A DNA stretch of 64,000 nt from Candidatus Moraniibacteriota bacterium (GTDB lineage: Bacteria > Patescibacteriota > Minisyncoccia > Moranbacterales > GCA-2747515), in NCBI GenBank assembly GCA_942490825.1, contig CALNYG010000004.1:52888-116887 (forward strand). The letters are read 5' to 3'. Below, one piece after another: positions 8,411 through 50,945 of the stretch. The notes beneath the pieces were generated by a model that did no database searches, was not told where the DNA came from, and was given only the letters and a program-made list of their open reading frames with translations. The first letter of the stretch is position 1. Every line of letters starts with the position of its first letter. A program made the position numbers and the translations under genes.

Positions 8411-8572
8411 TCAAGCGACGAAATGGTTTGCACCCATCGAGCTTGCGTGAACAGAGTTAACGATACAAACTCAAAAGAGCGCCCAAATAATTTCGGGAAG
8501 CTAAGTGGAACCGCCCTATTCTAGGGTCTTAGCATTATTTATGAAATTATTTAGGCGTTTTTTTGTTTTTTT
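8411..8572 (+). promoter_or_regulatory. T-box leader (Cys specifier UGC) of cysS
   Basis: Stem I is a K-turn: AAGC 8413-8416 pairs with GCUU 8441-8444, with a GAC bulge and tandem G.A pairs. It ends in a terminal loop UU-UGC-AC, with the codon at 8429-8431. The antiterminator is CUAAG-UGGAACC-GCCCUA-UUC-UAGGGU-CUUAG (8501-8532). A 15-bp helix (8480-8494 with 8543-8557) is followed by T7-G-T7. Confidence 0.85.
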
Positions 8573-8588
8573 GAACAAAATACTAATT

Positions 8589-8727
8589 CATGTCATCCCC
8601 GCGAAGGCGGGGATCCAGGAAAGCAATACTTTAAGTTTTAATACAAACAAAAGTTCATTTGCAAACTTTAAGTTTAATTTTCCTGGATTCCCTTCCACTT
8701 CGCTACGCTACGTACGGGAATGACATG
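8589..8727. repeat. family A nested-hairpin element, copy A1
   Basis: catgtcat-[ccccgcgaaggcgggg]-atccaggaaa ... tttcctggat-[tccc..cgctacgct..ggga]-atgacatg. Confidence 0.85.
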
Positions 8728-8745
8728 TACGAGAAGTAATGAAAA

Positions 8746-8762
8746 GCCCGTGCGGCGAGCAC
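8746..8762 (+). repeat. GC-rich 17-mer (gcccgtgcggcgagcac)
   Basis: Exact 17-mer flanked by aaaa/ttttt, 47 nt before the cysS ATG. Confidence 0.9.
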
Positions 8763-8809
8763 TTTTTATTTTTAAAAGTTTTAAATTGAATAATTAATAT
8801 ATAAAAAAT

Positions 8810-10279
8810 ATGTCAGAATTAAAAATCTACAACACACTCACAAATCAAAAAGAAGGATTCAAATCAATCAATGCTGGAAAAGTTGGAATTTACACTTGTG
8901 GACCAACCGTTTACGATTATATTCATATTGGAAATATTCGTTCTTACACTACTCCAGATGTTTTACGACGATATTTACTTTATTTAGGATACGAAGTTAA
9001 ACATATCAAAAATATCACTGATGTTGGACATTTAACTGAGGACGATCTCGCACAAGGTGACAGTGGCGAAGATAAGTTAGTAAAAAAATCTTTAAAAGAA
9101 AAGAAGTCTCCCGAAGAAATCGCTAGATTTTACGAAAATTATTTTAAAGAGACCGAGGAAGAAATGAATATTTTGCCAGCTAATTATTTTCCCCGTGCAA
9201 CAGCTCACATTCCGCAGATGATAAAAATAATTGAAAATTTAATCGAGAAAGGTTTTGCTTACGAAGCAAACGGAAACGTATTTTTCGATATTGAAAAATT
9301 TCCAGAATATGGAAAACTTTCCGGAAACACTTTAGAAAATTTAAAAGAAAATTCTCGTTTTGACGATCCACATCCTGACAAAAAAAATCAATGGGATTTT
9401 GCGTTATGGTTGAAAGCACCTGAAAATCATTTGATGCAGTGGAAAAGTCCATGGTCAATCGGTTATCCTGGATGGCACATTGAATGTTCAGCAATGAGTA
9501 CAGAATATTTAGGCGAGCAAATTGATTTTCATACTGGCGGTGAAGATAATATTTTTCCTCATCACGAAGCGGAAATTGCTCAGACGGAATGTCACACTGG
9601 ACATAAATGGGTAAATTATTGGATGCACACTCGCTACCTTTTAGTTGACGGCGAAAAAATGTCAAAGTCAAAAGGTAATTTTTATAAATTTGAAGATATT
9701 AAAGAAAATGGTTTTTCTGCAATGGATTTGCGAATGTTGATTTTGTCGTCTCATTATCGTTCTCAAATGAATTTTTCTTGGGAAAGTTTAACGCAAGCTC
9801 AAAAGAATATTAAGACTTTAGAGAACTTTTTTACTCGAATAAATAATTTAGAAAATGAAATAGAAAATAATGAAAGTAAAGTTGACGTGAAAGAATTTCA
9901 GAAAGAATTTGAGGATGCAATGAGTGATGATTTAAACACTCCGCAAGCTTTGAGTATCATTTTTGATTTTGTGAAAAATGTAAATTCTGTTTTAGATAAA
10001 AATGAAAATATTAATTTAAACGAAATAAAATCATTTTTTGAAAAAGTTTTAAATGTTTTAGGAATTAAAATTAAATCTAAAACAACCTACGTTAATTCAA
10101 AACTTACAATCAAAAGATCGATTGGAATTTCACAAGAAGTCTTAAATTTAGCAGAGCAACGCAAACAAGCTCGTGATGAAAAAAATTTTGAAAAATCTGA
10201 TCAGCTCCGTGATGAAATTAAAGATTTAGGTTTTGAAATTAAAGATGTCAAAGATGGCTATGAATTGGTGAAAATTTAA
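8810..10279 (+). CDS. cysS: cysteine--tRNA ligase
   Basis: HIGN (YIHIGNIRSY) and KMSKS class I motifs, plus GWHIECS. Confidence 0.95.
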   Translation: MSELKIYNTLTNQKEGFKSINAGKVGIYTCGPTVYDYIHIGNIRSYTTPDVLRRYLLYLGYEVKHIKNITDVGHLTEDDLAQGDSGEDKLVKKSLKEKKSPEEIARFYENYFKETEEEMNILPANYFPRATAHIPQMIKIIENLIEKGFAYEANGNVFFDIEKFPEYGKLSGNTLENLKENSRFDDPHPDKKNQWDFALWLKAPENHLMQWKSPWSIGYPGWHIECSAMSTEYLGEQIDFHTGGEDNIFPHHEAEIAQTECHTGHKWVNYWMHTRYLLVDGEKMSKSKGNFYKFEDIKENGFSAMDLRMLILSSHYRSQMNFSWESLTQAQKNIKTLENFFTRINNLENEIENNESKVDVKEFQKEFEDAMSDDLNTPQALSIIFDFVKNVNSVLDKNENINLNEIKSFFEKVLNVLGIKIKSKTTYVNSKLTIKRSIGISQEVLNLAEQRKQARDEKNFEKSDQLRDEIKDLGFEIKDVKDGYELVKI

Positions 10280-10290
10280 TTTCAACACAA

Positions 10291-10448
10291 CACAGGGTCG
10301 TGTTTCATAACCCCACCCAAAACATTTCTGAAAAAGTTTTGCGAAAAAATCAAAAATTGCACATGAACTTTACAAAAACATTATGGAACCAGTTATAAAA
10401 CTGGTTCCTGCGTAAATAATTACCAGAACAGGTTTTATAACCCGTTCC
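10291..10448. repeat. family B hairpin element, locus 1 (three hairpins)
   Basis: ggaaccagttataaaactggttcctgcg, gaacaggttttataacccgttcc and a degenerate cacagggtcgtgtttcataaccccaccc. Confidence 0.7.
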
Positions 10449-10533
10449 GTATACTTTTTTTCTACATATTTTTATTTAAAATAATTTTGACAAAAAATAT
10501 AAAAAGTGTAAAATTAAAATGTTGAACAATTTG

Positions 10534-10694
10534 TCAAGCGTTGAAATGGTTTACTACCCATTGAGCTTGCGTGAACAGAGTTAACGAAATAAACTCAAAA
10601 GAGCGCCCAAATAATTTCGGGAAGCTAAGTGGAACCGCCCTATTCTAGGGTCTTAGCATTATTTATGAAATTATTTAGGCGTTTTTTGTTTTTT
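10534..10694 (+). promoter_or_regulatory. T-box leader (Thr specifier ACU) of thrS
   Basis: Same architecture as 8411..8572. AAGC 10536-10539 pairs with GCUU 10565-10568. The loop is UUU-ACU-AC, with the codon at 10553-10555. The antiterminator spans 10625-10656 and the helix 3' strand 10667-10681 is followed by T6-G-T6. Confidence 0.85.
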
Positions 10695-10710
10695 GAACAA
10701 AATACTAATT

Positions 10711-10849
10711 CATGTCATCCCCGCGAAGGCGGGGATCCAGGAAAGTAATACTTTAAGTTTTAATATAAACAAAAGTTCATTTGCAAACTTTAAGTTTAAT
10801 TTTCCTGGATTCCCTTCCACTTCGCTACGCTACGTACGGGAATGACATG
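10711..10849. repeat. family A nested-hairpin element, copy A2
   Basis: Near-identical to A1. Confidence 0.85.
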
Positions 10850-10867
10850 TACGAGAAGTAATGAAAA

Positions 10868-10884
10868 GCCCGTGCGGCGAGCAC
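10868..10884 (+). repeat. GC-rich 17-mer
   Basis: Exact copy, 47 nt before the thrS ATG. Confidence 0.9.
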
Positions 10885-10931
10885 TTTTTTATTTATAATT
10901 TAAAAAGAATAATAATTAATATATAAAAAAT

Positions 10932-12749
10932 ATGTCAGAAAAAAAAGAACAAGAAAAAATTGATAAACAAATGATAAAGCGACATTCAACTGCACACGTA
11001 CTTGCAAATGCAGTTTTAGAAATGTTTCCAGAGGCAAAAATTGCCGTTGGACCAGCAACTGAAGATGGATTTTATCATGATTTTGAGTTACCTCGAAATC
11101 TAATTCCTGAAGATTTAGAAATTCTTGAAGAAAAAATGCGAGAAATTATTAAAGCAAATAATCCTTTTGAAAAATCTTCTATTTCAATTGAAGATGCAAT
11201 TGAGAAATATGAAAAATTAGGTCAAAAATATAAAGTGGAATTAATTAAAGATTTGGCTGAAAATGGTGAAACTGAAGTTTCTATTTATAAATCTGGAAAT
11301 TATGTTGATCTTTGTGCCGGACCACATTTAGATTCAACTGGAGAAATTAATAAACAAGCTTTTAAACTGACTAAATTTTCTGGAGCTTATTGGAAAGGAG
11401 ATGAAAAACGTGAGCAACTTCAAAGAATTTATGGTGTTGTTTTCAATGATAAAAAGCAATTGAAACAATATTTATTTCAACAGGAAGAGGCTAAAAAACG
11501 TGATCATCGGAAACTCGGAAAAGAATTAAAATTGTTTACAATCGATCCGAATGTTGGACTTGGCTTACCACTTTACAAACCAAATGGTGCAATGGTATTT
11601 AATCTTTTGAAAAGATGGTTTGAAGATGAACAATTGAAGCGTGGCTATGTTCCTGTTATTACTCCACATATTGGACGAAAAAGTCTTTGGGAAACTTCTG
11701 GTCACTGGGGATTTTACAATGAATCAATGTATCCTCCGTTAGAATTAGGTCAAACTCTTGAAGATTATCAAGACAGTCGAAAACCAAATGAAAATGAGAC
11801 TTATCTTTTGAAACCGATGAATTGTCCTTTTCATGTTGCTATTTTTAATGATGATCAATTTTCTTACCGAGATTTGCCGATTAAATATTATGAATTTGGA
11901 ACTGTTTATCGATTTGAGCAAAAAGGTGAATTGAGCGGACTTACTCGCGTGCGTGGATTTACTCAAGATGACGCTCATATCGTTTGCACTAAAGATCAAT
12001 TGGAAGAGGAAATGAAAAAGATGATCGATTTCGCTTCCTATGTTTTACGAGATACTTTTGGTTTTGAAATTGAAATTTATGCTTCTTTCCGTGATCCTAA
12101 AAAAGAAAAATATTTAGGAAATGATGAAAAATGGAATGTTGCTGAAAGTACTATTATTAAAATTTTAGAAGATAAAAAAATTGATTATAAAAAAGAGATT
12201 GGTGAAGCTGCTTTCTACGGACCAAAGATGGATTTTAAAGTTAAGGACTCCCTTGGTCGTCAGTGGCAACTTTCAACAATTCAATTTGATTTTAATCTTC
12301 CTGAAAGATTTGATATGACTTTTGTGAATAATGAAGGTGAGAAAGAACAACCTTACATGATTCACCGAGCATTGTTTGGGTCAGTTGATCGTTTCATGGG
12401 AATTATAATTGAACATTTTGCTGGTGCCTTCCCCACTTGGTTAGCTCCAAAGCAAGTTGTGATTGTTCCTGTTTCTGAAAAGTTTAATGATTATGCTGAA
12501 GAAGTTCGCGTAAAACTTTTTGAAAAAAATATTCGTGTGGAAGCTGATACTCGAGATGAGAGCTTAGGTAAAAGAATTCGTGAATCGGAAAAAATGAAAG
12601 TTCCTTATATTTTGGTTGTTGGTGAAAAGGAGATGAATGATAAAACTGTGGCTGTTCGTGCTAGGGATAACAAGGAAAATAAACAGGAAGTTGTTAAGTT
12701 TGATGATTTTGTTATGAATATTTTAGAAGAGATTTTGGAGAGGAAATAG
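10932..12749 (+). CDS. thrS: threonine--tRNA ligase (no N-terminal TGS domain)
   Basis: HSTAHVLANAV editing-domain HxxxH motif, class II core (FRFEQKGELSGLTRVRGFTQDDAH) and a C-terminal anticodon-binding domain. Confidence 0.95.
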   Translation: MSEKKEQEKIDKQMIKRHSTAHVLANAVLEMFPEAKIAVGPATEDGFYHDFELPRNLIPEDLEILEEKMREIIKANNPFEKSSISIEDAIEKYEKLGQKYKVELIKDLAENGETEVSIYKSGNYVDLCAGPHLDSTGEINKQAFKLTKFSGAYWKGDEKREQLQRIYGVVFNDKKQLKQYLFQQEEAKKRDHRKLGKELKLFTIDPNVGLGLPLYKPNGAMVFNLLKRWFEDEQLKRGYVPVITPHIGRKSLWETSGHWGFYNESMYPPLELGQTLEDYQDSRKPNENETYLLKPMNCPFHVAIFNDDQFSYRDLPIKYYEFGTVYRFEQKGELSGLTRVRGFTQDDAHIVCTKDQLEEEMKKMIDFASYVLRDTFGFEIEIYASFRDPKKEKYLGNDEKWNVAESTIIKILEDKKIDYKKEIGEAAFYGPKMDFKVKDSLGRQWQLSTIQFDFNLPERFDMTFVNNEGEKEQPYMIHRALFGSVDRFMGIIIEHFAGAFPTWLAPKQVVIVPVSEKFNDYAEEVRVKLFEKNIRVEADTRDESLGKRIRESEKMKVPYILVVGEKEMNDKTVAVRARDNKENKQEVVKFDDFVMNILEEILERK

Positions 12750-13385: not shown

Positions 13386-14429
13386 ATGTCAACCCCCAAA
13401 TCTCCAAACAAACAAATAACCATAATCGGACCAACAGCCTCAGGAAAATCCAACATCGCCATAGCTTTAGCCAAAAAAAATAAAGGCGAAGTCATCAGCT
13501 CAGACTCACGTCAGATTTATCGTGAATTAAATATCGGGTCGGGCAAAGAACCAGGAAAATTAGAAACCATTTACTATGCAAAAAATGGCGATTTTAAAAT
13601 TGTAAAAAACACTAACCAAAGATTCGACCTTCGGATACCCGAAGGTCGAACCTTGAAAAAGGTTTACATCTGCGAAAAAATCCCCCACTACATGATCGAC
13701 ATCGTCCATCCCAACACAATTTACAACGTCGAAAAATTCGTAAAGAAATCAAAAAAAATACGAAAAGAAATTTGGCAACGAAACAACTTACCAATAATTT
13801 GCGGTGGCACAATGTTTTGGGCTCAAGCTTTAGTCGAAGAACAACAATTCCCCAAAGTATTACCCAACGAAAAACTCCGTCAAGAATTATCAAAAAAATC
13901 CAAAGAAGAAATTTTTAATATTTTAAAAAATTTAGACCCAGAAAGGGCTGAAGATATTATTAAAAAAAATGAAATCAATAATTTAGTCCGTATAGTTCGT
14001 GCCATTGAAATCGCCACAGAATTAGGTAAAGTTCCCAAAATTAAAAAAAATGGAAATAAACAAAATGAAAATAATCTAATTATTTCCGTCACTCATCCAA
14101 AAGAATTTTTACACCAAAAAATAGAAAAACGCATGGACAAATGGTTTGACGAAGGAATTTTTGAAGAAATAAAAAAACTTCATTTTGAAATGAAAGTGCC
14201 TTGGGTTAGATTAGAAAGCTTCGGCTTAGAATATAAATGGTGCACTCGCTACGTCCGCGGTCAAATTGATTTTAACGAAATGCGAGAAAACACCATTCGA
14301 GATTTAAAAAAATATGCCAAACGACAAATGACTTGGATTCGCCGTTGGGAAAAATCTAGCACAAAAATTCATCACGTAACTTCCGCAAAAGAAGCTGAAA
14401 AATTAGTTAGTGATTTTCTAAAAAAATAG
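13386..14429 (+). CDS. miaA: tRNA dimethylallyltransferase
   Basis: GPTASGKS P-loop, DSRQIYRELNIGSGK and IPHYMIDIV. It carries an extra segment between these motifs. Confidence 0.9.
   Translation: MSTPKSPNKQITIIGPTASGKSNIAIALAKKNKGEVISSDSRQIYRELNIGSGKEPGKLETIYYAKNGDFKIVKNTNQRFDLRIPEGRTLKKVYICEKIPHYMIDIVHPNTIYNVEKFVKKSKKIRKEIWQRNNLPIICGGTMFWAQALVEEQQFPKVLPNEKLRQELSKKSKEEIFNILKNLDPERAEDIIKKNEINNLVRIVRAIEIATELGKVPKIKKNGNKQNENNLIISVTHPKEFLHQKIEKRMDKWFDEGIFEEIKKLHFEMKVPWVRLESFGLEYKWCTRYVRGQIDFNEMRENTIRDLKKYAKRQMTWIRRWEKSSTKIHHVTSAKEAEKLVSDFLKK
13619..13654. repeat. family C palindrome inside the miaA coding sequence
   Basis: ttcgaccttcgg-atac-ccgaaggtcgaa has perfect 12-bp arms. It is translated as RFDLRIPEGRTL. 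Confidence 0.9.
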
Positions 14430-16301: not shown

Positions 16302-16321
16302 AAAAAAATTATATTATATTT

Positions 16322-16456
16322 ATGTTATCCCCGCGTAGGCGGGGATCCAGGAAAATAAAACTTTAAGATTTAACGTAAACAAAAATTAATTACAAAACTT
16401 TTAATTTAATTTTCCTAGATTCCCTTCCCTTACGCTACGCTCCAGCCGGGAATGAC
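16322..16456. repeat. family A nested-hairpin element, copy A3
   Basis: atgttat-[ccccgcgtaggcgggg]-atccaggaaa ... tttcctagat-[tccc..cgctacgct..ggga]-atgac. Confidence 0.8.
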
Positions 16457-16498
16457 AACTGTGATTGATAAATATTATAAAAAAATATTATAACACAC

Positions 16499-26827: not shown

Positions 26828-26851
26828 AACAAGGGGCCATGACCCCTTGTT
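26828..26851. other. GC-rich hairpin downstream of rplA
   Basis: aacaagggg-ccatga-ccccttgtt. No clear U-run follows. Confidence 0.4.
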
Positions 26852-44313: not shown

Positions 44314-44350
44314 GTGCCTGTCTGCCGATAGGCAGGCTCGGCGCACGGGC
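44314..44350 (-). repeat. GC-rich 17-mer variant split by a 19-20 nt hairpin insert
   Basis: gtgc-[ctgtctgccgataggcagg]-ctcggcgcacgggc, 53 nt downstream of the Y1 transposase stop. Confidence 0.7.
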
Positions 44351-44402: not shown

Positions 44403-45110
44403 CTATTCCAAAATAAATTTCTCCAATTCTTTCTTCTCCTTCAAATACAAGGCATTTTTTTCAATAAAATCTTTATAATCCTTTAGATCATAATCAAACT
44501 GCTCTAAAATAACATCTTTATCACATAACATTCCATTTCTTTTTCCAAGATAATCTAAAAGACTAGAATATTTCCAATCTTCATTTTTATTTCCATGAAT
44601 GAAATGATTTTGATTTACATAAGCAGATAGATACAAAAGATATTCATTTGAATCAATGTGAATTGACTTGAATTTTCCTTGAAAAAGTGAGCCTGAACGT
44701 TTGTGTTTTTTGTTAAAATACATCGTGTAAGAAGTTCCTAATTTCTGCATAAATCTTTCTACACCCTTATCTGCGTTTTGTTTCAAAATAAAATGATAAT
44801 GATTTGGATTTAAACAATATGCAACAAATTCAACAAGTTTATTCCTATTCTTAAGTTGTTCTTTGAAATTATTTTCAAACACTCCAAGGTTCGACCTTCG
44901 GGGATCCGAAGGTCGAACCTTTTCACGTTGATAATCTCTATAAAGTTGCATCAATCCATTGCTTTCATCATTCAACAAATTCATATTCAAGATAAATCTC
45001 TTATAATCATCCTCATCCATAAAAACGTTCTTTTTATCAACGCCTCGATTATAAATATGATAAAATTCATAGTTTGCGAATTGCGTTTTTCTCATAAAAA
45101 AATTAAACAA
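44403..45110 (-). CDS. Y1 HUH transposase (IS200-like / REP-associated RAYT-like)
   Basis: YHIYNRGVDKKNVF, the HUH motif NPNHYHFIL and the C-terminal Tyr region LSAYVNQNHF. Confidence 0.75.
   Translation of the reverse strand: MFNFFMRKTQFANYEFYHIYNRGVDKKNVFMDEDDYKRFILNMNLLNDESNGLMQLYRDYQREKVRPSDPRRSNLGVFENNFKEQLKNRNKLVEFVAYCLNPNHYHFILKQNADKGVERFMQKLGTSYTMYFNKKHKRSGSLFQGKFKSIHIDSNEYLLYLSAYVNQNHFIHGNKNEDWKYSSLLDYLGKRNGMLCDKDVILEQFDYDLKDYKDFIEKNALYLKEKKELEKFILE
44886..44921. repeat. family C 36-nt perfect palindrome inside the Y1 transposase gene
   Basis: aaggttcgaccttcgg-ggat-ccgaaggtcgaacctt, translated as KVRPSDPRRSNL. Confidence 0.9.
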
Positions 45111-50755: not shown

Positions 50756-50810
50756 AATTCTCAAAAAAATTTCAAAAAACTTCTTTATTAAATTCTACCT
50801 CAAACCACTT

Positions 50811-50931
50811 TGCAGGATCGGGTTTTATAACCCGATCCACACGTTTTTGAATAAGTCTTGCAAAAAAAATTAAACACAACACCAAACCGAAACAAAAACG
50901 TTTAAAACCAGTTGTAAAACTGGTTCCTGCA
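50811..50931. repeat. family B hairpin element, locus 2
   Basis: tgcaggatcgggttttataacccgatcc, a ~60-nt spacer, then ccagttgtaaaactggttcctgca in inverted orientation. Confidence 0.7.
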
Positions 50932-50945
50932 TATTATTTTATAAA

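Follow-up and report, generated by a model that had tools for sequence, protein, structure and literature searches.

In a 64,000-nt stretch of a Candidatus Moraniibacteriota genome (GenBank assembly GCA_942490825.1, contig CALNYG010000004.1, positions 52,888 to 116,887; hereafter the window, whose own numbering is used below), a GC-rich palindrome of 36 nt lies in frame within two protein-coding genes, miaA, encoding tRNA dimethylallyltransferase, and a gene for a Y1 (HUH) transposase. We propose, with a probability of about 0.72, that this palindrome is a doublet of the repetitive extragenic palindromic (REP)/REPIN type, and that it serves as cognate DNA to a RAYT/TnpAREP-type Y1 transposase of Patescibacteria that acts on single-stranded DNA. 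The palindrome in miaA would then be a dispersed copy of the repeat that resides in the enzyme's own gene. We place the element with the REP/REPIN-RAYT systems and not with orphan Rickettsia palindromic elements (RPEs), because its second host gene is Y1/RAYT-like and because a cognate hairpin site is present family-wide in such genes.

A stop-free palindrome lies in frame in miaA and in a transposase gene

The window holds two exact matches to TTCGACCTTCGG-N4-CCGAAGGTCGAA, at 13623-13650 and 44890-44917. In miaA, the letters and coordinates are as first described: the palindrome at 13619-13654 reads aAGaTTCGACCTTCGG-ATAC-CCGAAGGTCGAACCTT, is in frame and is translated as RFDLRIPEGRTL. Its 12-bp stem is perfect, with the 4-nt loop ATAC, and 14 of 16 pairs form over the full length, the outer 4 bp being partly decayed. 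The full 36-nt version claimed for 44886-44921 is indeed a perfect 16+4+16 palindrome, which encodes KVRPSDPRRSNL in frame; a Y1 paralog (P0121), listed for a contig equal in length (182,390 bp) to that of this MiaA (P0001), encodes the same peptide. Two further claims of the original prediction also stand, namely that the reading frames differ between the hosts (RFDLR..EGRTL in MiaA vs KVRPS..RRSNL in the Y1 gene) and that no stop codon is added to either gene, the window-type palindrome being stop-free in all three frames. We refer to this repeat as the AAGGTYSRACCT-type palindrome and to its single-strand hairpin as AAGGTTCGACCTTCGG.

The GC content of the palindrome is ~56%, vs ~30% for the genome, which its closest protein matches assign to a Moranbacterium of the Patescibacteria. 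When the window was shuffled 100 times with dinucleotides preserved, the exact 12+N4+12 pattern did not appear once. Both copies, taken as single strands, folded better than their shuffles (z = -6.1 and -7.1), and none of 200 shuffles equalled them. The absence of shuffle matches, together with folding z scores of -6 to -10, rules out chance or base composition as the origin of the palindromes. We also rejected a known RNA family, as nothing anywhere in the window matched Rfam at the gathering score, and a tRNA-related origin, as the window is without tRNA genes. The window holds no further degenerate copies: the 12-mer, allowed up to two mismatches, matched only the four known arms.

The second host gene encodes a RAYT-like transposase

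The original prediction had assigned the second copy to an unrelated gene. It lies in fact within a Y1/RAYT-like transposase gene, belonging to a family in which this hairpin site is general. The probable start of the gene is the ATG at 45095 (MRKTQFANYEF...), and the protein carries HUH as H104-Y105-H106 and the catalytic tyrosine Y164 in YVNQN. Histidines H104 and H106 and the tyrosine of the YVNxN motif are invariant in the aligned relatives. The AlphaFold model has a mean predicted local distance difference test score (pLDDT) of 79.8, which drops below 50 at residues 65-67 and 70-74.

In a Foldseek search, the best match among solved structures was 4er8 (E=1.7e-4, probability 1.00), a complex of E. 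coli RAYT with a REP hairpin, whereas IS200, IS608 and ISDra2 transposases matched the fold with E values of 0.05 or worse. A sequence search of PDB with the Y1 profile returned nothing at E up to 1, so that the RAYT match came from the fold search alone. The Y1 protein is ~220-235 aa long and combines a C-terminal extension with the motif set NHYH / FQ / YVNxN[NH]. In these motifs and in a length of ~220 aa, the protein resembles tnpAREP subclass 2.1, for which no REPs have been reported (PMC6006769).

Most Y1 genes of the family carry hairpins inside and at one or both ends

We took 80 metagenome loci encoding Y1 relatives and aligned 86 Y1 open reading frames (ORFs), 84 of which span both sides of the palindrome site and were counted. 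Within the linker that joins the first helix to the HUH strand, we counted inverted repeats of 9 bp or more, allowing no more than one mismatch; equally long segments of the same Y1 genes served as controls. We found such a repeat in 76/84 relatives vs 6/84 control segments; at a length of at least 12 bp, the counts were 46 and 0. The hairpin sequences vary widely by locus (for example TTCCTAAAGGG-a-ACCTTTAGGAA, ACTTGGGAGCC-g-AGCTCCCAAGT and CGGAGTTCGACTCCGA-a-TCGGAGTCGAACTCCG), and internal perfect palindromes reach 26+26 nt in some loci.

The same hairpins recur around the genes. In 53/76 Y1 genes, the internal 10-nt core is found again within the 90 nt that precede the start, and in 50/73 it follows the stop; 59/73 have it on at least one side and 41/73 on both, whereas cores from other loci matched the flanks in only 43 of 1410 trials (3%). 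Of the flanking hairpins, the upstream one ends ~10-25 nt short of the ATG and the downstream one starts ~5-15 nt past the stop codon; their feet read TTCC..., (C/T)ACTTGG..., CGGAG... or AAGG.... Each locus has its own hairpin sequence, common to the gene, its flanks and the distal copies.

These counts bear on the possibility that the palindrome is an orphan, RPE-like selfish element, unrelated to the Y1 enzyme, which merely landed in the Y1 gene. Stop-free, in-frame insertion in housekeeping genes is indeed what RPEs do, and the window's own Y1 gene lacks flanking hairpins. However, an orphan element would have to account for an internal site that is occupied in nine-tenths of the family, for an internal hairpin that matches the flanking ones in 59/73 genes as opposed to 3% for cores of other loci, and for a locus-specific hairpin common to gene, flanks and distal copies. 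We consider this explanation highly improbable. Of the RPE-like behavior in the original prediction, what survives is that the repeat is dispersed, sits in frame, adds a peptide and brings no stop; its identity as an orphan RPE does not, since the repeat is linked to Y1 genes.

The Y1-gene frame is kept across the internal hairpin in 84/84 genes, and many hairpin types have stops in two of the frames. This frame conservation suggests that the palindromes are translated. A GC-rich hairpin in a gene of an AT-rich genome does resemble byp elements, which are GC-rich hairpins of yeast mitochondria, and the insert could in principle be an untranslated one that is skipped by translational bypassing (byp, T4 gene 60), or else an assembly artefact. 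Unlike byp/hop bypass inserts, however, the inserts in all 84 Y1 genes are a multiple of three in length and stop-free in the frame that is used, and the same kind of structure occurs in independent assemblies from NCBI, ENA, JGI and Logan. The chance of either explanation being right seems to us negligible.

Several additional features of the Y1 loci were noted. In many of the loci L010-L089, the stretch that separates the upstream hairpin from the ATG holds a TATAAT-like box, ~8-15 nt away from the start; because the box is so near the start, it suggests a leaderless or near-leaderless transcript with the hairpin in the promoter. Second or third in-frame palindromes are present in the Y1 genes of L040/L041, L043/L045, L046, L033, L083 and L084, located either past the FIHGY motif or close to the LGQF region at the C-terminus. 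The protein P0170 has a similar insert, GSTLGAFKVEP.

Long palindromes consist of two short hairpins placed head to head

The relation between the single hairpins and the long palindromes is clearest in the RA.bin150 assembly (L001). Just before the Y1 start codon lies a single hairpin, TTCCGAAGGT-CGA-ACCTTCGGAA, and the internal 52-nt palindrome of the same gene consists of two inverted copies of it, so that the flanking hairpin equals one arm of the internal doublet. Among 29 different long palindromes, the individual arms also form hairpins of their own, with a mean stem of 6.5 bp vs 3.6 bp for shuffled arms. The long palindromes are therefore head-to-head doublets of a short hairpin, an arrangement like that of REPINs but nearly spacerless. 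Of the 29, nine are stop-free in all three frames, the window type among them.

Copies of the repeat occur in unrelated proteins

Beyond the Y1 genes, the repeats are found in a range of other hosts. In RA.bin150, the Y1 gene and a P-type ATPase gene have 40 identical nt in common, including the loop, of the window-type palindrome. The ATPase copy is read in the third frame as KGSTFGIPKVEPL (GSTFG..KVEP), as is a partly decayed copy in TsaE (L020 1251-1282), which reads GSTFKIPKVEP; with MiaA and the Y1 gene in the other two, all three reading frames are in use. The Y1-gene palindrome of L016 recurs in MurB, between the two Pfam domains of that protein, and that of L066 is found again in an AMP-binding enzyme. 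Further copies of short single hairpins are mainly intergenic (L012, L017, L019, L020, L063 and L064).

Long, perfect or near-perfect palindromes of other sequence, unlike the Y1 hairpin of their own locus, lie in frame in LigA, an XerC/D-like recombinase, DnaG, the dihydrouridine synthase Dus and an Elp3-like enzyme (Table 1). The palindromes in the last two hosts, L028 and L086, have a GTAG foot, and canonical GTAG-type REPs would on this ground also be intragenic in Patescibacteria. In-gene palindromes are often at interdomain positions (MurB, the XerC/D-like recombinase, DnaG). Together with the coil in the MiaA model and the modeled Y1 loop of pLDDT <50, these positions indicate that the host sites are permissive.

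The miaA palindrome differs symmetrically between orthologs

The MiaA protein of the window scores 191 bits against the TIGR00174 miaA model (cutoff 149). Its segment around the palindrome had been described as longer than usual, which proved correct: the solved MiaA structures 3d3q and 2qgn have just 5-6 residues opposite query residues 54-96. The palindrome codes for only 12 of the ~36-40 extra residues. In the AlphaFold model (mean pLDDT 85.9), strands are predicted at residues 58-64, 70-72 and 91-96, and a coil at 73-90, with pLDDT of ~70, holds the palindrome-encoded residues 79-90. The model fits a tolerated surface loop between added β-strands. Because the copy is 36 nt or 12 codons long, stop-free in every frame and placed in a surface loop, it would simply be translated and tolerated.

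We compared the DNA of seven syntenic miaA orthologs, all of which have the gene order thrS-miaA-...-gatB. A palindrome is present at the same codons and in the same frame in four of the seven (L004, L005, L007 and L008), whose MiaA proteins are 60-76% identical to that of the window. It reads AAGGTCCAACCTTCGGAT|ATCCGAAGGTTGGACCTT in L004, AAGGcCCAACCTAGGGTC|GACCCTAGGTTGGaCCTT in L007 and ATCCAATCTAG-AGTCGACC-CTAGATTGGAT in L005, and forms a 14-bp stem with an 11-nt loop in L008. No palindrome was found at the site in the three closest relatives, L003 (83% amino acid identity), L006 (80%) and L009 (72%). The palindrome codons common to orthologs as distant as these speak against a recent, private insertion in the window's miaA. 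According to the original prediction, orthologs with the same peptide would point to ancestral sequence and away from insertion. Orthologs do carry the peptide IRSNLRISEGWTL, which formally answers to that description, but insertion is not thereby refuted, because the same orthologs carry the palindrome in their DNA and because the closest relatives without the palindrome are also without the peptide.

Differences between the orthologous palindromes are matched on the two arms. The window and L004 palindromes differ by two changes, each compensated on both arms. L004 and L007 have miaA genes with 83% nucleotide identity, and their palindromes are almost the same over the outer 12+12 nt; in the inner 12 nt, 8 positions differ, and all of these changes are symmetric. 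Such arm changes fit better with replacement by copying or conversion than with independent point mutations. Cross-genome matches were also found: the inner core CTAGGGTCGACCCTAG is present in the Y1 gene of L090 as well, and the Y1 palindrome of L011 resembles the miaA palindrome of L004.

Alternatively, the palindrome could be a selected cis-acting structure in the mRNA or DNA of miaA, acting for example in translational pausing, as an RNase III site or in mRNA stability, with its likeness to the Y1 repeat secondary. Perfect palindromy that persists at one set of codons down to an ortholog identity of 60%, the matched arm changes and the strong predicted folding would all suit such a role. 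Against it, the closest MiaA relatives (P0003, 83%; P0002, 80%; P0006, 72%) do without the palindrome at the site, most Moranbacteria MiaA lack the segment altogether, genes of unrelated function carry the same palindrome, between them in all three frames, and no Rfam family matches in the window. We think this explanation quite unlikely.

Most Moranbacteria MiaA proteins have a 19-aa linker at this position, whereas those of the window and P0002-P0012 have 34-50 aa. In a neighbor-joining tree of MiaA, built with the insert masked and without support values, the long-insert forms fall into two separate clades, P0008-12 being nested among forms with the 19-aa linker. The two clades speak against a single ancient gain of the segment; either loss or repeated gain could account for them.

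Comparison with REP systems and weighing of the evidence

A REPtron is a transposase gene bracketed by its own repeat (PMC6006769). The system described here works like one, although it falls outside strict membership on its guide tetranucleotide and copy number, and its fit to the protein subfamily is equivocal. Like the REP/REPIN-RAYT systems, it has a Y1/HUH protein whose nearest solved fold is that of E. coli RAYT, a gene flanked by its own hairpin, one repeat family per gene, dispersed copies, inverted doublets that form long hairpins, and in-frame copies both in unrelated genes and in the transposase gene. In-frame REP insertions have been described inside tnpAREP genes of subclass 2.4, between HUH and Y (Quentin et al. 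2018, PMC6006769); the internal copy here differs in lying upstream of HUH and in being nearly universal (76/84). Intragenic REPs, often dimers encoding 20-30 aa, are frequent in replication, repair and tRNA-related genes, and RPE-4 and RPE-6 have been re-read as GTAG/CGTC REPs (Di Nocera et al. 2013, PMC3733652). In-frame REPs, including those inside tnpAREP genes, are thus already published; new here are their occurrence in Patescibacteria, the lack of a GTAG foot and the near-universal site upstream of HUH.

There are also differences from these systems. No GT[AG]G or CGTC foot is present: we looked for one beside the flanking hairpins and found none conserved. While a REPIN consists of two REPs with a spacer, the doublets here have almost no spacer and form perfect palindromes whose loops measure 0-5 nt. 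Copies are sparse, and those in the long form lie mainly inside genes. With RPEs, the element has in common palindromic repeats in frame in housekeeping ORFs, a small AT-rich genome, a stop-free peptide and apparently permissive surface sites; it differs in its 36-nt unit, its Patescibacterial host and its evident cognate Y1 gene. Classical RPE-1 insertions are longer, usually ~100-150 bp.

Besides the missing foot, several observations weigh against our reading. Classical REPs are abundant and mostly extragenic, whereas the window-type palindrome has few copies, two in 64 kb and both within genes, and the entire RA.bin150 assembly has only 2 exact matches. The window's own Y1 gene has the internal copy only, without flanking ones. 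Its protein scores 29.8 bits against the NCBIfam REP_Tyr_transpos equivalog (cutoff 80), and the Y motif is YVNxN[NH] and not Y---NP (PMC6006769 Table 1). The proposed link between enzyme and repeat is drawn from their co-occurrence. Finally, the Y1 gene is not single-copy, with the paralog P0121, putatively of the same genome as the window's gene, and three copies in L010, and its neighbors are mostly not conserved (93 clusters among 124 neighbors).

Because the Y1 gene is multi-copy and its neighbors are mostly unconserved, the unit may be an element akin to insertion sequences (ISs) and not a domesticated RAYT. In its full form, this alternative holds that an IS200-like IS of ~750 bp, made up of a hairpin, the Y1 gene and a second hairpin, is the mobile unit, and that the other palindromes are its solo ends or miniature derivatives. 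The bracketing of a Y1 gene by hairpins near start and stop is a trait of IS200/IS605 elements, and the distances given above resemble those of subterminal IS200 hairpins. However, IS200 TnpA is ~150 aa long with a Y---Q motif (PMC6006769), shorter than the ~220-aa protein here with its C-terminal extension and NHYH/FQ/YVNxN motifs, and the best structural match was RAYT and not the TnpA of IS200 or IS608. No tnpB accompanies the gene, a third hairpin lies inside the ORF, and hairpin-only copies occur elsewhere in the genome, all of which sets the system apart from IS200/IS605. The L010 copies carry two hairpin types and are thus not identical IS copies, and the upstream neighbors that are common to the L015/L016 pair and to the window/L076 pair suggest some vertical inheritance. 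We judge an IS200-like origin to be unlikely. In L010, the three Y1 genes lie within 12 kb (2112-2901, 9955-10669 and 11419-12133), and one of the two hairpin types is identical to that of RA.bin150.

If the palindrome is the cognate DNA of a RAYT-like enzyme, as we propose, a mechanism can be sketched from established knowledge of IS200/IS605 and TnpAREP enzymes. The Y1 enzyme would bind the hairpin extruded on single-stranded DNA, cut it and rejoin it, and copies would be made or replaced in this way. Re-copying or gene conversion would keep the copies within a genome alike. Such homogenization would explain how the miaA palindrome could stay perfect at one site while both of its arms were replaced symmetrically between lineages. 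A more far-reaching version is that the in-ORF hairpin is no tolerated passenger but a cis element that a class of REPtrons spread across Patescibacteria cannot do without and that co-evolves with them, that the enzyme binds all three hairpins, for autoregulation or as alternative transposition ends, and that stop-free 36-nt doublets are a routine source of loops and linkers in essential proteins of these reduced genomes; we offer this tentatively and on balance doubt it. The TATAAT-like box next to the upstream hairpin in many loci and the near-constant occupation of the internal site bear on whether the in-ORF copy might have a function of its own.

A palindrome that had appeared to be an orphan "RPE-like" element gains a probable mobilizing enzyme under our reading, and Patescibacteria would be placed among the lineages with REP/RAYT-type systems. 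In the literature that we searched, REP, REPIN or RAYT were not found treated together with the candidate phyla radiation (CPR)/Patescibacteria in a relevant way. In these compact genomes, the long repeat survives mainly inside genes, in the loops and linkers of MiaA, TsaE, MurB and the P-type ATPase, and palindromes of other sequence are placed similarly in Dus, DnaG and LigA. Because the long form sits at loops and interdomain linkers, the repeat contributes measurably to differences in protein length. Palindromes of this kind can also interrupt assemblies and lead homology-based annotation astray. With its near-universal in-ORF copy, the three-hairpin layout should make the co-evolution of Y1 enzyme and hairpin tractable.

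Features and other repeats in the window

The coordinates of the host genes and palindromes are collected in Table 1.

Table 1. Host genes, palindromes and related features. Positions without a locus name are those of the window.
Feature	Position	Strand	Context and evidence
miaA (tRNA dimethylallyltransferase), 347 aa	13386..14429	+	Pfam IPPT E=3.8e-52; TIGR00174 above cutoff
Lineage-specific extra segment of MiaA, residues 55-96	13548..13673	+	Alignment, solved structures and AlphaFold model
Palindrome, 36 nt	13619..13654	+	Within miaA; encodes RFDLRIPEGRTL (residues 79-90)
Y1/HUH transposase gene, RAYT/TnpAREP-like	44403..45110	-	Pfam Y1_Tnp 1.5e-8; invariant residues; Foldseek best PDB match 4er8
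Palindrome, perfect 16+4+16	44886..44921	-	Within Y1 gene; encodes KVRPSDPRRSNL (ORF residues 64-75), in the disordered linker upstream of HUH
Palindrome in LigA	L039 5392-5434		In frame
Palindrome in XerC/D-like recombinase	L082 2722-2755		In frame, between Pfam domains
Palindrome in DnaG	L089 5472-5503		In frame, between Pfam domains
GTAG-foot palindrome GTAGAGACG...CGTCTCTAC in dihydrouridine synthase	L028 1599-1626		In frame
GTAG-foot palindrome GTAGAGACG...CGTCTCTAC in Elp3-like radical-SAM/GNAT enzyme	L086 3169-3196		In frame

The window contains other repeats. At ~44315-44350, ~50-90 nt past the Y1 stop codon, lies a GC-rich, imperfectly palindromic island, gccgagcctgcctatcggcagacaggcac, the sequence of which is unrelated to the palindrome. 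A leader of ~390 nt is duplicated with 93-96% identity (8432-8824 and 10556-10946), each copy standing before a gene. The first precedes a putative aminoacyl-tRNA synthetase gene (8810-10279), and the second precedes thrS (10932-12749). A motif in the leader, AGCTAAGTGGAACCGCC, looked T-box-like, and an Rfam scan gave no T-box match.

A 140-nt element is present three times, at 8586-8725, 10708-10847 and 16318-16457, with identities of 99%, 100% and 84%. It has the inverted ends CATGTCATCCCCGC ... GGGAATGACATG and an inner hairpin, ATCCCCGC-GAAG-GCGGGGAT, and has no Rfam match above threshold; it could represent a structured RNA or else a miniature mobile element. In apparently intergenic DNA at 10374-10459 and 50802-50940, hairpins with AT-rich loops lie in pairs (GGAACCAGTT-ATAA-AACTGGTTCC and GGATCGGGTT-TTAT-AACCCGATCC). 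A different palindrome, AACAAGGGG(T)-loop-(A)CCCCTTGTT, occurs at 26828-26851 in the window and at 2708-2731 and 15013-15036 in L003. Common to the window and to a contig of its closest relative, this AACAAGGGG/CCCCTTGTT palindrome may represent a second repeat family of the lineage.

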